A stretch of 49,478 nucleotides of DNA from Gemmatimonadales bacterium (GCA_013813435.1 JACCRS010000151.1:1-49478); one strand, 5' to 3'. Counted from the stretch's first letter, positions 8,841 through 40,042 are shown. Made by a program: numbers and translations. The notes: a model not told the origin generated them from the sequence alone.

Positions 8841-9770
8841 ATGGCAGTCCGAGCGGTACCGGCGGTTGGCACCGGCCTCACCACGACCAAAGCGCCGTTC
8901 ATCGAACAGGCTCAGGCGGAGGGACGGCTTTACATACATCAGCCGTACGAGCTCTACTCCGAAGCGAACCACGATGCCTGGCGGAGGCTCTTTTCCCGGA
9001 TGGAGGAGCGCTGGCGCCGATATGCCAACCCGCGCTTCATCCAGGGCATCGATAGCCTGTGCCTCGACCCCAATCGGATGCCACGGCTGGAAGACGTCAA
9101 TCGGTTCCTCAGTCCCCTCACCGGCTTCAAGGCGAAGCCGGTAAGCGGCTACATTCCATCGTTTCTTTTCTTCGATTCTCTCAGGAATCGCGAATTTCCA
9201 ACCACCATTACCATCCGCGACGGCGCCACGCTAGACTACCTGCCGGAGCCCGACATTTTCCACGACATCGCCGGCCATGTGCCGATGCATACCGATCGCG
9301 CGTTCGCGGACACGCTCGTCCGGTTCGGCGACTGCGCCCACACGGCAGCTGAGATCGTCGCCGGCATCGAGGATGAGAAGGAAAAGATTCGGCGGGTTAC
9401 CAGCATCTTCAAAGCACTGGCGCGATTCTTCTGGTTCACTATCGAGTTCGGACTGATGCGCCAGGGCTCGGAGCTCAAGGTATACGGCAGCGGGCTTCTC
9501 AGCTCTTATGGCGAAATCGCGCACTCGGTCGATTCACCCGATGTGCAACGGTATCCAATGCAACTCGAATGGGTGATAAACCAGTACTTCGAGATCGACC
9601 GATATCAGCCATTGCTATTCATCGTGGATTCATTCGATCACCTCTTCGAGCTGGTGGGGGAGCTGGAGGGATGGATGCGCGAAGGCCGGCTGAACAACGT
9701 TGCGCCGGGAGAGCCCGCCATCAGCGAGCCCGACCTGCGGAGCTTTCTGGAGGCGCCGGTAGGGCGGTAG
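8841..9770 (+). CDS. phhA: phenylalanine 4-hydroxylase (pterin-dependent aromatic amino acid hydroxylase)
   Basis: RBS GGGGGAG. Iron-ligand region PDIFHDIAGHVPMH and YGSGLLSSYGE. ~309 aa, typical bacterial PAH size. Confidence 0.85.
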   Translation: MAVRAVPAVGTGLTTTKAPFIEQAQAEGRLYIHQPYELYSEANHDAWRRLFSRMEERWRRYANPRFIQGIDSLCLDPNRMPRLEDVNRFLSPLTGFKAKPVSGYIPSFLFFDSLRNREFPTTITIRDGATLDYLPEPDIFHDIAGHVPMHTDRAFADTLVRFGDCAHTAAEIVAGIEDEKEKIRRVTSIFKALARFFWFTIEFGLMRQGSELKVYGSGLLSSYGEIAHSVDSPDVQRYPMQLEWVINQYFEIDRYQPLLFIVDSFDHLFELVGELEGWMREGRLNNVAPGEPAISEPDLRSFLEAPVGR

Positions 9771-9915
9771 CCACATCGGCGGTAGGACCGGGGCGGTAAG
9801 AACCCGGGCGGTAGGAGCCGAGGCGGTGGGACCGAGCCGGTCGAGGCATACTGCCGCTTTACCTACCGCCTGTTTACTTACCGCCTCTATACCAACCGCC
9901 TCTTCACCTACCCCC
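9763..9915. repeat. inverted arrays of the 9-mer GGCGGTAGG at ~15-bp spacing
   Basis: Five direct copies start at 9763, 9778, 9792, 9807 and 9822 (GGCGGTAG/GGCGGTAGG/GGCGGTAAG/GGCGGTAGG/GGCGGTGGG). Four inverted copies lie at 9862, 9877, 9892 and 9907 (CCTACCGCC/CTTACCGCC/CCAACCGCC/CCTACCCCC). The first copy contains the phhA stop TAG. Confidence 0.75.
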
Positions 9916-34747: not shown

Positions 34748-36285
34748 ACCCGCTTCCGCATGCGCGCCGGAAGGATGCCCAGCTGATCGCGGTACTTGGC
34801 GACCGTACGGCGGGCGATCTGGATTCCCTGCTCCTGAAAGAGATGAACAATCTGCTGGTCGGTGAGCGGCTTGGCGCTGTTCTCCTCGCCCACCATTTTC
34901 TCCAGCTTGGCGCGGATGGAGCGGGCGCTCGCATCTTCCCCCGATGCGGTGGAGAGCGCGCTGGAAAAGAAGAACTTGAGCGGGAGAACACCGCGAGGGG
35001 TCTGCACGAACTTCTCGTTCGTCACCCGGCTCACGGTGGACTCATGCATGTTGATGACCTCCGCGACTTCGCGGAGGGTAAGAGGCTTTAGATACTCGAT
35101 GCCCTTTTCAAAGAAGTCGCGTTGCCGATCGACGATGAAATTCATGACCTTGAGCATGGTCTGGCGGCGCTGCTCGATGGCCTGGATCATCCAGTTGGCG
35201 CTGTTCATCTTCGAGGCGATGAACTCGCGGTTCTCGGGCGTCATCTTTTTCTTGTCGCGCGCGATCTCCTGATAGGAACGGCTCAACCGCAGCCGAGGCA
35301 TGCCTGTGTCGTTGAGAAATACATGATAGCGAGTCCCGATCTTATCAACGATGAGATCCGGAATGATGTAGCCATCGCTCTGCTGCGAATACTTGAGACC
35401 GGGCTTGGGGTCAAGCCGGGAGAGCTGATCGGCTGCGGTCTGTACCGCGCCAGGTTCGACCCCGAACCGCTTGGCAAGGTCGTTCCATCGATGGGCGATC
35501 AGATCGGGAAATGCCTCGGCTACGAGGCGATAGGTTAGAGACGAGGTGTCCGCCAGCTCCACCAGCTGAATCAGGAGGCACTCGCGCAAGTCCCGGGCAC
35601 CAGTGCCCGAGGGATCCAGGCGCTGGATGACCGTGAGCATCTCCTCGGCTTCCTGAAGGGTGTAAAAGGGGGGAGAGGACGAAGAGGACGGAGCAGATGC
35701 GTTGGCTGAGCCGCCGGCTGCCGACGGGATCTCGAAAGTCTCAAGCCCTCCATCTTCTCCGCCATCTCCGTCTTCTCCGCTAACTCTTACGTGCCCCGAG
35801 AGGAGCAGATTCACCGAGTTGAGAATGTCCTCGAGCGGCGCCGCGAGGTATCCCTCCTCGTTGACATTGCCCAGGAACTCCTCGGCGAGCAGCAGTTGGC
35901 GCGGCGTTAAGACGAGCATCTGGAGCTGGTCCCGCAGATGATCGATGAGGTTGCGGGACTCGACCGTGACGGGCTCGGTGTACTCCAGCTGCTCGTATTG
36001 CTCCCGAGTGCCGCCCACCTCGAAGCCGTTAAGAAGTATCTCCTCCCAGTCCACCTCGTCCTGCTTGTCTTTCTGCTCCTTCTCCTCTTTAGCGGTTGCC
36101 GGTTCCGGCTGCGCCTCCTCTTCCGGCTCCAACAGCTCGAGGAACGGATTGGCCAGCAGTTCCTGCTTCAGGTGTTGCTGGAGGTCCATCATAGGCATGT
36201 ACAGCATGTCCATGGCCTGATAGAGCCGGGGATTGACCCTCAGCTCCTGGCGCATGCTGGTATGCTGTGACAGGCCGGTTCTCAT
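34744..36285 (-). CDS. rpoN: RNA polymerase sigma-54 factor
   Basis: N-terminal Gln/Leu-rich region I, acidic region II, C-terminal HTH and RpoN box ARRTVAKYR. Confidence 0.9.
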
Positions 36286-37442
36286 GCAGCCGCCTCGAGT
36301 CGGGCGCGGAGACGCGCCGTGAGCGTCGGCCCCAGGTAAAGCTGGGCAACCCGGTCGTCGTAGACCAGATCACGCACGGTGCCTGCGGCCTGAACTTTTC
36401 CTTCGAAGATGATGTAGGCCCGATCTACGATGTCGAGAGTCTGCTCCACGTTGTGATCCGTAATCAGCACGCCGATGCCACGATGCCTCAAGCCGGCGAC
36501 GATGGTTTGGATGTCGTGCACAGCGATCGGATCGACGCCGGCAAATGGCTCGTCCAGCAACATGAACTTGGGGTCCGACACCAGGGCCCGGGTTATCTCG
36601 AGCCGCCGCCGCTCGCCGCCACTCAGGGTATATGCCTTGCTTTTGCGGAGATGCTTGATCGAGAGCTCGTCCAGCATGCGGTCCAGACGGCTATAGCGTT
36701 CGTCCCGGCTCAGCCCCCGCGTCTCCAGAATGGCTAAAATGTTCTCCTCGACTGTCATCTTGCGGAAGACCGAGGGCTCCTGGGCCAGGTAGCCGATGCC
36801 ATTTCGGGCCCGTTGGTACATCGGCGCGTCGGTAAGCTCAACTCCATCCAGCCGCACGCGGCCCTGGTCGGGGCGGATAAGTCCCGTAATAAGGTAGAAG
36901 GTCGTTGTCTTTCCCGCGCCATTTGGTCCCAAAAGGCCGACGATCTCACCTTGCTCCACCCGCACAGTCACGTCGTCTACCACCCGCCGACCCTTGAAGC
37001 TCTTGCTCAGGTCGAGTCCTTCCAGCAGGCTGGTCTGGGCGCCATTTCTGGGATAGGTCTTGGCCCGCCGCACGGCACGCCGGGCCGAGCCGAGCAACGC
37101 CTCGTAAACCGTTTGCCGCTCTTCCACCGTTGGGCCCCACCACGCCACCCGCGGCCGCACCGTCTGCCAGTAGCCTGCGCTGGTATCGAGAATCCAACCC
37201 TCGGTTGCCAGCCGTGGCAGCACGGAACCATTCAGGTGGTGCCGCACCTCATCGCCGGAGACTTCCTGGTCCGCATCTCCGGTGGGCTGGTAGCAGGCCA
37301 GGTAAGCCTCGCGGTAGCTGTGCACCAGGTCGGCGAACGCGATGGTTTCAGTCGGGCCCACGGCCTGGACAATCGCTGCCAGTCCAATCGGCACCGAGGG
37401 ATCGCGATCGCCGAGCGCGGCGACCCACTCTGGCGCGGTCAT
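36282..37442 (-). CDS. lptB: LPS export ABC transporter ATP-binding protein LptB with a ~135-aa N-terminal extension of unknown function
   Basis: Walker [10 protein letters not shown] at residues 172-180 (residues 36-44 in E. coli LptB), [11 protein letters not shown] signature, [11 protein letters not shown] Walker B, C-terminal LYLGPT. The ATG overlaps the lptA-like stop (ATGA). Confidence 0.8.
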
Positions 37443-38869
37443 CCGCCTTCGTCCGTTCCCGGCAGCGAATCGGCTTGCGTCGCGCTCGAGTCCGGCCGGG
37501 CCGGGGCGTCCGCCGCTTCCAGCTGGATACCATCCACCTGGCCCCGGATGTCCACCCGGTCGACGCCACCCTGCCCGGCCGGGCTCATCGTCATGACGAT
37601 AACGTCACCCCGGGCGTAGTTAATTGACGGCCTATCCGGATGCCTGGCATTTGCCTCGATGTGGTACGACTGGGCCCCCTTCCGCGCCACGATGCGGCTC
37701 AGGGCGGCACGGGCGGTGCCCGCCGAATCCCGCTGGACGAAGCTGGCGACCACGCTATCTCCTCGAATCCAGTCGCGTTGCTTGCTGGCCGCCTCGACGG
37801 TGCCTCCCAGCCAGGCGGCGCCGAAACCGCGCACCTCCTTGAGTCGCTGGGCCGGGGTATCGAGCGCCAAGGAATCGGCACGCATGGCGTAGGCCGGCGA
37901 GGTTGCATAGGGGCGGATAGAATCGCCCCAGGCCAGCGTCTGCTCCAGCTTTCTGTTGTTCAAATCGAGTCCGATCGTGTCAGCCACCAGGTCCCACTCT
38001 CTACTCACCGCGTGGCCGTTGCCCCTGGCGAGCACGTACGTGAGCTCCCGCTGGTCGAGCTTCAGATCGAGCCGTCGGCCAGACAGGTTAAAGCTGTCAC
38101 GGCCCAAGCCGCGCATCACGGGATTCCCGCCGATGAGGGTGCCATCGCTTCCCTTGCCGGTGTCCAGCCGGAGCGAGTCTCCCTTGGCGGCAAAATCGCT
38201 GCGGTCGATCGTGACCTTGCCGCCACCCCATAGCCGGTCGTTGCCCTTAAGCCGAACCCGGTCGGCGACGATGATGTACGGCTCACCCGGCCTGGCACCG
38301 GGAGCCGCAGCTGTGTACTCAATGCGGGGGCGTCCGGTCGAAAACATCTCCAGCGTGTCCCGGACACCCTTCACCACCCGGAAATAGTCGAGCGCGGGCC
38401 CGGTAAGGGTCGAGCCGTTCCTGATGTTTCTGGTGGTGACGCGTCCGCGGGCCTCCCACTTCTCGCCCTTCTTGTAGTAGGTGCCCCGGTCGGCATCCAT
38501 TGTGAGGGTGGAGTCGCGGTATTTCACATTACCTATGAACTGGACAACATCGCCGCCATAGGCCGCCACGCTGTCACTCTGCATGGTGAGTTGCTGGCCC
38601 CGGCAGCTGAGCCGAACGTTGCCCCCGGCGAAATAGTTGGTGCCGGCGGGTGTCTCGTTCACGCTGCCCTGACGATCGACGTTGTCAATCTGGAAAACGC
38701 ACCGATCGGACTGGCCGTGCGCAGCCGCTACCTGCGTCATGAGAGCGAGGAGGGCCAGTCCGAGCGGGTAAGCGGGTAAGCGGGTAAGTGGGTAAGCAAG
38801 GGCACGCCGCAGCGCCCTGGTCCACCGAGAGCGTACCCGCGTACCCGCGTACCCGCTTACCCGCCTCAT
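37439..38869 (-). CDS. elongated LptA/OstA-family periplasmic protein (476 aa)
   Basis: Signal-peptide core [17 protein letters not shown]. Repeated OstA-like beta-jellyroll segments ([34 protein letters not shown]). Positioned between lptC and lptB. Confidence 0.65.
38764..38864. repeat. inverted tandem-octamer repeat (long hairpin) at the lptC/lptA junction
   Basis: Plus strand: (GCGGGTAA)x3-GTGGGTAA-GC at 38764-38797 and GC-(GTACCCGC)x3-TTACCCGC at 38831-38864. The arms are reverse complements apart from about one position per unit. The 33-nt spacer contains AGGGC..GCCCT. Confidence 0.85.
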
Positions 38870-39405
38870 TGACCCGGCAACAGCAGACCCTCACCCGAAA
38901 CTCCTCGAGGACGGTCCGTCACGACGTTCCTGAAATCCGGATCCGAGCGGAAGCTGTTTCCCTCCAGATGCTCGGCACCGCGGTCGAATGAGAACTGCTG
39001 ATCCGTCATGATCTGGTTGGTGGCGTTGTCATAACGCAATGACTCGGTGCTGAGCCGGCGGCCATCGGGCGCTACTACCAGGACATTCCCGGTGGCTTGC
39101 ATGGAGCCGTCCTGCCAACGATAGGTCCCCCCTCGAGCCGTGAGCGTGGAGCCTTCCTCGCCCTTGAGATCGAAGAACACCACCTTGAGCTTACGCAGTT
39201 CGGTTACCTGAGTAGGCTCGTAATAGAAAGCCGTGTCGGCTTCCACTCGGCTGCGCCGTACCCCGTCGTTTGTCACGTAGTGGGAGAAGCCCTCCAACAC
39301 CTGGTCGGCGCTGTCAGTGGCCTGCACGGTCGTGGTTGGCCTCACACCAGAGTCCTCGCACGCCAACGCCGCCACCGAAGAAAGTACTATTAGAAGACGG
39401 CGCAT
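38866..39405 (-). CDS. lptC: LPS export system protein LptC-like (lipoprotein)
   Basis: ATG 39405 gives MRRLLIVLSSVAALAC (lipobox-like), then a beta-rich ~160-aa domain. Located directly upstream of the lptA-like gene and lptB. The longer tracked ORF overlaps kdsC and is rejected. Confidence 0.6.
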   Translation of the reverse strand: MRRLLIVLSSVAALACEDSGVRPTTTVQATDSADQVLEGFSHYVTNDGVRRSRVEADTAFYYEPTQVTELRKLKVVFFDLKGEEGSTLTARGGTYRWQDGSMQATGNVLVVAPDGRRLSTESLRYDNATNQIMTDQQFSFDRGAEHLEGNSFRSDPDFRNVVTDRPRGVSGEGLLLPGQ

Positions 39406-39481
39406 TTGCACAACGGGACGCGGGACCTCCGCGCCCTCGGGCTCCAGCAGCGGGCGCCCCACCTCGATCACTGCCGAAAAG

Positions 39482-40042
39482 TCAAGCCGCACCCGCGGTC
39501 TGCTCCCCAAAGTAGCGCGCGAGTATTTCGCCCCAGTCGCCGCGCGCGCGGAGAATGGTTTCGACGATCTCGCGGACCGCACCGTGACCACCGCCAGCGC
39601 GCGTGACATGTGTCGCAACAGCTTTGACGTCAGGCACCGCATTCGCGACTGCGATGGGGAGCCCAACCTTTCGAAGTACCGGCAGATCAGCGAGGTCGTC
39701 TCCGACGAAGGCAGCATCAGACCATTCGATGCCACGGCGTTTCAACACCTCGGCGAATGCAGCGGCCTTGCCGGGCCCAGGGACCTGGAGCAGCTCTTCC
39801 ACTTTCAGCTCCGCCGCCCGGAGTGCCGTAGCCTCGGATGCCCTGCCACTCAGCCACACAACCGGAAGCCCCGCGGTCCGGAGGAGAATGAGTCCCAGCC
39901 CATCCTGAATGTCGAAGCGCTTGAGCTCAACCCGCTCACCCGCCACCGGTCCAATGAAGACTCCGTTGTCAGTCAGCACCCCATCCACGTCCAGGCCGAT
40001 CAACCGGATTCTACGAGCGGCTGCGGTGCTGAGGGTGTTCAT
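39482..40042 (-). CDS. kdsC: 3-deoxy-D-manno-octulosonate 8-phosphate phosphatase (HAD-IIIA)
   Basis: IRLIGLDVDGVLTDNG (DxDGxxT), FVGDDLADLPV. ATG 40042 overlaps the kdsA stop (ATGA). Confidence 0.8.
   Translation of the reverse strand: MNTLSTAAARRIRLIGLDVDGVLTDNGVFIGPVAGERVELKRFDIQDGLGLILLRTAGLPVVWLSGRASEATALRAAELKVEELLQVPGPGKAAAFAEVLKRRGIEWSDAAFVGDDLADLPVLRKVGLPIAVANAVPDVKAVATHVTRAGGGHGAVREIVETILRARGDWGEILARYFGEQTAGAA

Follow-up and report, generated by a model that had tools for sequence, protein, structure and literature searches.

An octamer-repeat hairpin, apparently read as part of a signal peptide, at the lptC/lptA-like junction of an uncultured Gemmatimonadales bacterium

The lptC/lptA-like junction and hairpin H1

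The DNA stretch analysed here (the window) was the entire 49,478-bp contig C97 of G000, a metagenome-assembled genome (MAG) of an uncultured Gemmatimonadales bacterium (2.86 Mb in 255 contigs, 63.8% G+C, 94% complete); the genomes compared with it were all MAGs as well. On its minus strand, an LptC-like gene and an LptA/OstA-like gene were joined by an ATGA overlap, and a hairpin of inverted tandem octamers, designated H1, followed the overlap within the signal peptide region of the second gene. The open reading frame (ORF) list and the sequence gave the following features:

38866-39735, minus strand: LptC-like gene, listed ORF, matching PF06835 LptC (E 4.1e-12) over residues 114-263 of the listed ORF
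38866-38869, minus strand: ATGA overlap, made of the TGA of the LptC-like gene (38866-38868) and the ATG of the LptA-like gene (38867-38869)
37439-38869, minus strand: LptA/OstA-like gene for a secreted protein of 476 aa, with the H1 element as codons 2-36 of the signal peptide
38831-38864, minus strand: 5' arm of H1 on the mRNA, G-rich; GCGGGTAA, then GCGGGTAC three times, then GC; codons 2-13
38798-38830, minus strand: spacer or loop of H1, 33 nt, locus-specific, with a small inner AGGGC/GCCCU stem
38764-38797, minus strand: 3' arm of H1 on the mRNA, C-rich; GC, TTACCCAC, then TTACCCGC three times; roughly codons 25-36

Read on the plus strand, the two arms were (GCGGGTAA)x3-GTGGGTAA-GC at 38764-38797 and GC-(GTACCCGC)x3-TTACCCGC at 38831-38864. 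The repeat search of the window recovered them as an inverted repeat with arms of 34 nt each, 88% complementary and 33 nt apart, and as period-8 direct repeats at 38763-38794 and 38831-38862; a two-unit 18-mer probe had 6 matches in the window at no more than 3 mismatches, versus 0.02 expected from shuffles. An earlier inspection of the window from its sequence alone (the original prediction) had described a hairpin of about 100 nt at the lptC stop and the following start, with about one mismatch per unit, and its coordinates, arms, 33-nt spacer and mismatch rate all agreed with these results. The folding that it had proposed as a check was also carried out: the minus-strand RNA of 38740-38890 folded at -86.8 kcal/mol, against a shuffle mean of -64.6 (z = -5.85, 0 of 200 shuffles as good), and in the minimum-free-energy fold the arms of H1 were paired and the inner AGGGC/GCCCU stem was included. 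A gap of 1 nt separated the lptC TGA from the 5' arm, so that the stem began at +6 of the AUG, about 5 nt after it, and no Shine-Dalgarno-like sequence was found close upstream of this AUG. The spacer could not be aligned with those of other copies of the repeat (see below) or of orthologous junctions.

Neither an intrinsic terminator nor a promoter pattern was observed at the junction, and no U-tract followed the stem. Rfam returned nothing above threshold for H1; the microRNA-precursor look-alikes (mir-3622, 35 bits versus a gathering score of 78) were sub-threshold and were rejected as generic long-hairpin matches. The arm of H1 fitted the (G3N5)x4 motif; folding that allowed for G-quadruplexes (G4) kept the hairpin in the full context and gave no G4 for the isolated arm, and the GGGG-type arm of orthologous locus L021 was predicted to form a G4 at -28.5 kcal/mol.

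The LptA-like gene lay between the LptC-like gene upstream and an LptB-like ABC ATPase gene downstream. Translation of the 476-aa ORF bore out the earlier statement that no in-frame ATG, GTG or TTG occurs between codon 1 and the hydrophobic core; CTG at codons 20 and 38 were the only candidate internal starts, and the ATG at codon 44 fell within the core. The core was predicted to span 17 residues, with the mature part beginning near QSDRCVFQI. Searches of Pfam, NCBIfam and PDB, including a profile search of PDB sequences, gave no match at threshold for this protein. Among its orthologues, weak matches were obtained to OstA_2 (10 of 25, best E 0.0028) and LptD_N (3 of 25); together with the position between LptC and an LptB-like ATPase, these support the putative LptA label. 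The AlphaFold model of the mature protein had a pLDDT of 39.8 and was not usable. Since the gene belongs to the Kdo/Lpt operon and is kept in 28 of 31 relatives, it is presumably essential.

Reading frame and stop codons in orthologous junctions

The junction was compared in about 60 species-level genomes, and approximately 58 junctions were scored; in most of these the overlap was kept as ATGA or GTGA, with M-[KR]-R after it. A full inverted octamer element occurred at the same site in 15 other, independently assembled genomes. Presence in independent assemblies bears on the suspicion that the inverted repeat arose when a fragmented MAG was misjoined, as a chimera or a fold-back, which the 255 contigs of G000 and the many arrays at contig ends might suggest. 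The element is internal to a 49-kb contig and to an intact conserved ORF, and the 15 other genomes came from different studies and assemblers; the probability of such an artefact is considered negligible.

The orthologous elements differed in unit type (GGCA/TGCC, GTAA/TTAC, GGAA/TTCC, and GTCA/TGTC), and their spacers could not be aligned. Between the coupled start and the conserved CVFQI motif there were 171 nt in seven full-element genomes and 159, 168, 174, 192 or 201 nt in others. In all 13 directly scorable full-element orthologues the element was in frame with the coupled start and contained no stop. Two more (L035 and L078) were out of frame overall, yet in both the frame stayed intact from the start to the core, the element included, and the breaks came further downstream; because two element-free assemblies of the "MFD" series were likewise frameshifted, these breaks point to assembly indels. 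The frame through the element was thus kept in 15 of 15 full elements, over at least six lengths. Distant and some close relatives lacked the element and had the ATGA or GTGA overlap with an ordinary signal peptide of 22-35 aa, e.g. MKRGIGAVLVLLGWLPASAAAQSDKCVFQI; in outgroups its length was 25-30 aa.

These data also bear on the proposal that the element is a contingency locus, in which slippage of the octamer units would turn the LptA-like gene on or off; the original prediction had stated that slippage would frameshift the gene in a similar way. The unit length is no multiple of 3, the arrays are homogeneous, and unit numbers differ between species, all of which would suit such a switch. 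But no orthologue had a frame-breaking number of units, the two frameshifted assemblies break outside the element, the gene is presumably essential, and the arrays are short, with 3-4 units; comparable repeats in Xanthomonas have been judged unlikely to be phase-variable (PMC4692102). The proposal is accordingly regarded as highly improbable.

A second signature was found at the codon level. Once an array has three or more GCGGGTAA or GCGGGTAG units, all of its frames contain a stop, and among GCGGGTAN units genome-wide the variable base was A in 31, G in 27 and C in 5, i.e. TAA or TAG in 58 of 63. In the four lineages with TA-type arms at the junction, the in-frame TAN was TAC (window, L077, and L078) or TAT (L028), a non-stop codon in 4 of 4, versus TAA or TAG in 7 of 12 out-of-frame TAN positions at the junction. 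Avoidance of stops by change of TAA to TAC explains part of the mismatches between the arms, namely the A-to-C changes in the 5' arm of the mRNA. Conservation of frame over at least six lengths, together with stop avoidance, indicates purifying selection on the frame from the coupled start.

Alternatively, the element might be an untranslated short 5' leader, the true start of the LptA-like gene being in or after the spacer, at CTG codon 20 or 38. The loop of the hairpin would then expose the start codon, and a start at CTG codon 20 gives an acceptable signal peptide. However, the distance from the coupled start to the core was a multiple of 3 in every full element whatever its length, no internal start was conserved among orthologues, and the same was true at a second locus described below. 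Moreover, a start within the spacer would leave the 5' arm unconstrained, so that the avoidance of stops specifically in this arm, upstream of any such start, favours translation from the coupled ATG; an untranslated leader is held to be very unlikely. The frame and stop patterns indicate that translation starts at the coupled ATG and runs through the element, whereby the n-region of the signal peptide gains about 27-30 residues. Of the two possibilities named in the original prediction, the long Arg-rich n-region made from the repeat is the one that this comparison supports.

The second locus, C81:16584-18032 of G000, encoded a 483-aa DUF4139-like secreted protein that starts at an ATGA overlap and whose signal peptide reads through a full octamer hairpin. 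Its element was in frame and stop-free in G000, G002, and G008, while G010 had the ATGA overlap and a 24-aa signal peptide with no element; in G000 an in-frame unit carried GGG AAA where the other units were of the TAA type. Further copies in the genome were also read through behind coupled starts. In-frame arrays, with putative start codons, were observed at C169:6202, C190:13122, C235:6945, and C124:6373-6404; three of them formed the N-termini of putative GatA, LysA, and MobA genes behind GTGA or TTGA overlaps, and one lay inside a putative Pro/Ala linker of a 2-oxoacid dehydrogenase E2.

In a tree of mature LptA-like proteins (63 rows, quick IQ-TREE), all full elements fell within one clade of 30 rows (SH-aLRT 99) and were spread through all of its subclades, whereas none of the 33 rows outside carried one. 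Sister species within the clade retained the G-rich arm only (L026 and L029), the C-rich arm only (L024 and L036), a single unit from each arm (L038), or no part of the element; the difference between L036 and its close sister L032 was an in-frame deletion of 66 nt. These sequences are most simply read as a single old insertion, common to a clade of at least 30 species-level genomes, that later lost one arm or both through in-frame deletions on repeated occasions; the clade pattern and the shared length of 171 nt favour a single origin.

As for the neighbouring genes, the true start of the LptC-like gene is probably near 39420. The LptB-like ABC ATPase ORF (36282-37442, minus strand, 386 aa) has its ABC domain from residue 156 and an N-terminal extension of about 140 aa, which begins at an ATGA overlap with the LptA-like gene; similar sequence was present in close relatives.

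The octamer family and conserved RNA structure

H1 turned out to belong to a family spread over the whole genome, in which no fewer than 36 inverted pairs with the structure (GCGGGNNN)n-spacer-(NNNCCCGC)n were found. Single arrays were also numerous, and several were at contig ends. In these Gemmatimonadales, arrays of the family are located along the margins of intergenic regions. The spacers were 7-137 nt long across 36 forward/reverse pairs, with one more of 526 nt. The unit variants were GCGGGGCA, GCGGGTAA, GCGGGACA, GCGGGGCG, GCGGGGAA, GCGGGTAG, and GCGGGTCA. The arms were common to many loci; the spacers were unrelated between copies, even those of the same arm type. Arrays had 2 (51 arrays), 3 (51), 4 (41), 5 (8), 6 (3) or 8 (1) units, with a steep fall beyond four, and the H1 copy has 4 + 4. 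With 4 cores, the (GCGGGNNN)n pattern had 22 + 22 matches in G000 versus 2 + 0 for the reversed control. Some members of a single genus of uncultured soil Gemmatimonadales carried the family; none of 12 genomes from other genera of the order did.

When each array was oriented with its G-rich strand 5' to 3' and ORFs of at least 100 codons were counted, 38 of 120 arrays (32%) had the stop codon of such an ORF no more than 12 nt upstream, 32 of these at 0-3 nt; 3.5% of random positions had such a stop within 12 nt upstream. C-rich arms just upstream of gene starts were as frequent as in controls (32% versus 31%). The location of the element exactly at the lptC stop, which the original prediction had taken as a special feature of this junction, is a rule of the family and no peculiarity of the junction. 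Because family members follow stops and the lptC stop overlaps the next start (ATGA), the element lies inside codons 2-36 of the LptA-like gene.

The arrays at 9763-9915 of the window, which the original prediction had likened to the core of H1, do resemble it: they are opposed arrays of GGCGGTA(N) units with approximately 15-nt phasing, immediately preceded by a TAG stop and with a tRNA gene downstream. Arrays made up purely of GGCGGTAN octamers were observed on contigs C1, C48, C73, and C206, and both types look like a sister sub-family under the same post-stop rule. An arm of the GCGGGTCA type was regularly paired with TGTCCCGC, the exact complement of which is GCGGGACA, in C129, C147, C148, C166, and C168 of G000 and in L042; the same T-T (U-U) mismatch per unit was seen at many loci with unrelated spacers, for which stop avoidance is no explanation. 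In G012, a genome of the same genus, no GCGGGNNN arrays were found, but the reversed control pattern (GGGCGNNN...) had 38 + 35 matches; a different octamer family is thus present there, and the unit sequence turns over between species. At C214:269-882, inverted arrays of 5 and 6 units surrounded the 526-nt spacer, which encodes a protein of PF05635 (E 4.7e-29), the 23S rRNA intervening-sequence/four-helix-bundle family. On C178, an octamer pair was located 2 nt after the TAG stop of a putative atpB-like gene, and a separate palindromic repeat of CTAGAC/GTCTAG units (1100-1190) lay between putative atpE-like and atpF-like genes.

As to RNA structure across species, all 15 full-element loci folded arm on arm, with the segment from the start to the motif at -67 to -125 kcal/mol. 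RNAalifold on 11 loci recovered the H1 stem with 12 pairs changed on both sides (AU to CG at 5:5, and GC to UA) at variable unit positions. As arms and units are shared family-wide, this covariation may reflect concerted evolution as much as selection on the RNA. A further hairpin, H2, was detected by the inverted-repeat search:

38702-38767, minus strand: H2 hairpin, arms at 38702-38716 and 38753-38767, directly following H1

The arms of H2, CCGCTCGGACTGGCC (codons P-LGLA) and GGCCAGTCCGATCGG (codons GQSDR), enclose the codons of the hydrophobic core. H2 had 11 of 11 pairs and a loop of 32-37 nt, in at least seven sequence versions, in most rows of the 30-row clade, irrespective of H1. The proportion of paired cells was 73%, versus 17-42% in slid controls, and covariation, counted on the named structure, exceeded that in all 500 shuffles, with compensatory changes such as GGA/TCC to GCT/AGC. 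H2 is locus-specific, its 10-mers being no dispersed repeat. RNAalifold on the 30 sequences returned no structure for H2, owing to register shifts.

These structures raise the possibility that H1 is a selected cis-regulatory RNA which, stacked on H2, gates or attenuates translation of the LptA-like gene or sets the LptC:LptA ratio through an RNase or stability site, its coding capacity being a side effect. The arms were pair-perfect in 15 species with spacers diverged beyond alignment, and 12 pairs of the stem showed two-sided changes; the short distance between the AUG and H1, with no Shine-Dalgarno-like sequence close upstream, is compatible with gating, and the independent conservation and covariation of the adjacent H2 suggest that the 5' end of the mRNA is structured clade-wide. 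On the other hand, one or both arms are missing in approximately half of the clade, where H2 and the gene are intact, the same arms occur at dozens of unrelated loci and are therefore a property of the family and not of this locus, concerted evolution can mimic covariation, and the junction has no terminator-like or promoter-like pattern. This account is rated as rather unlikely.

Interpretation and comparison with known systems

The reading preferred here, and considered probable, is that H1 is a copy of the post-stop octamer family that is translated in the n-region of the LptA-like signal peptide, is old and has been lost repeatedly, with a possible role in coupling. The element would have landed after the lptC stop as family members do, and it may have survived because the Sec n-region tolerates extra, mostly basic or neutral residues. 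Its arms would be kept repeat-perfect while the spacer decays by concerted evolution (slippage inside each arm and template switching from one arm to the other), perhaps aided by selection for structure. The stem near the AUG would block free 30S initiation, so that production of the LptA-like protein would rely on ribosomes fresh from termination at lptC, by which the stem is melted; translational coupling would thereby be tightened and expression damped. Gating of ribosome access by the hairpin, the other possibility named in the original prediction, is plausible. Since many sister species have no hairpin, any such effect would be modulatory and not essential.

Several observations weigh against this reading. 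The translation of the element is deduced from conservation of frame and stops, and in single species a start inside the spacer, near-cognate or GTG, could provide a signal peptide (CTG at codon 20 in the window, and GTG at codon 14 in L021). That some half of the 30-row clade has lost H1 arms speaks against a strong function. With spacers that cannot be aligned, several insertions at one preferred site are an alternative to a single origin. The covariation in H1 could stem from concerted evolution at the DNA level or from replacement by other copies of the family. Finally, coupling and gating are arrived at purely by reasoning.

A bolder view, which must be called unlikely, is that post-stop octamer hairpins are a functional, lineage-wide signal acting on terminating ribosomes, which enforces termination-reinitiation coupling at gene overlaps and has been co-opted repeatedly for extended signal peptides (LptA-like, DUF4139-like, and others). 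If this were true, H1 and the conserved H2 would set the stoichiometry of the lipopolysaccharide-transport bridge.

Under the preferred reading of a translated family copy, the junction provides a comparative case, made from uncultured-genome data alone, of a selfish-looking repeat hairpin that would be translated; its basis is the conserved frame, the avoidance of stops visible in the codons, and the products of in-frame decay seen in sister species. The placement of the element precisely at a stop and start is now explained. A Sec signal peptide would appear to tolerate an n-region roughly doubled in length. For annotation, it should be borne in mind that hairpins at ATGA junctions in these genomes are likely to be coding and not intergenic. 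In addition, two natural allelic series (full hairpin, one arm, and none) are available for studying the effects of post-stop G-rich repeats on translation.

The closest described class is that of G-rich heptamer repeats, GGGNATC in Xanthomonas and GGGGA(C/T)T in Nostoc, the function of which is unknown (Rehm et al. 2015, PLoS One, PMC4692102), and the octamer family is the counterpart of these repeats in a new phylum. Both consist of short G-tract tandem units dispersed genome-wide with a preference for about four units, both carry the G-rich strand in sense orientation, near a stop codon or overlapping it, and both form many convergent pairs with stem-loop potential and have no associated mobile-element gene. 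The present family differs in its octamer unit with a GCGGG core, its Gemmatimonadales host and its tighter anchoring at 0-3 nt after the stop, and no G4 was predicted for the GGG-type arm of the window. [quoted passage not shown]

Palindromic repeats that reside in frame and stop-free inside genes, giving translational fusions, are known from the Rickettsia palindromic elements (RPE) and from other elements of the MITE type, such as ERIC/RU and QMITE (reviewed in PMC10969869). Like an RPE, the H1 element is an in-frame, stop-free copy in a tolerant part of a protein, a likeness of behaviour and not of descent. RPE are approximately 150 bp long with an internal sequence shared family-wide, whereas in the octamer element only the arms are shared and the spacer is locus-specific; moreover, RPE become coding by insertion anywhere in an ORF, whereas coding residence here results from the post-stop position at overlapping genes.

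REP and BIME sequences resemble the octamer pairs in being GC-rich hairpin repeats at the 3' ends of genes, often as inverted pairs. REPs within about 15 nt of a stop codon reportedly stall terminating ribosomes, a result attributed to Liang, Rudd and Deutscher in 2015. A single arm of the present family is a tandem array and not a palindrome, and the H1 copy is intragenic, unlike REP/BIME. Assignment to REP or REPIN, whose unit is an imperfect palindrome of 20-40 nt tagged GTAG or CGTC, was rejected, as the arms are direct tandem arrays with a palindrome only between arms and most unit types (GGCA, GACA, and GGAA) have no GTAG. A link to RAYT was likewise rejected: one clear Y1 transposase was found (PF01797, C178:2445-2783, 96.7 bits; a weak match on C14), and the C178 gene had no flanking arrays, in a scan that covered a 94%-complete genome, from which another copy could be missing. 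Miniature inverted-repeat transposable elements were rejected as well, because the spacers of copies of the same arm type and of orthologous copies are unrelated and have no conserved internal sequence; no target-site duplications were evident at the lptC/lptA-like junction, where no systematic search for them was made.

Autotransporter and two-partner secretion proteins have Sec signal peptides of more than 50 residues, in which an N-terminal extension precedes an ordinary n-h-c signal. The LptA-like protein similarly has an N-terminal extension ahead of an ordinary signal, but the autotransporter extension has a conserved amino-acid motif, whereas the residues encoded by the octamer element vary with unit type and only M-[KR]-R is kept. 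What is new compared with these systems is the combination, i.e. a post-stop tandem-repeat hairpin that, judging from the sequence comparison, has been forced into a coding region by gene overlap and is translated as a signal-peptide extension, as well as the documentation of this combination in multiple species by a codon-level signature.

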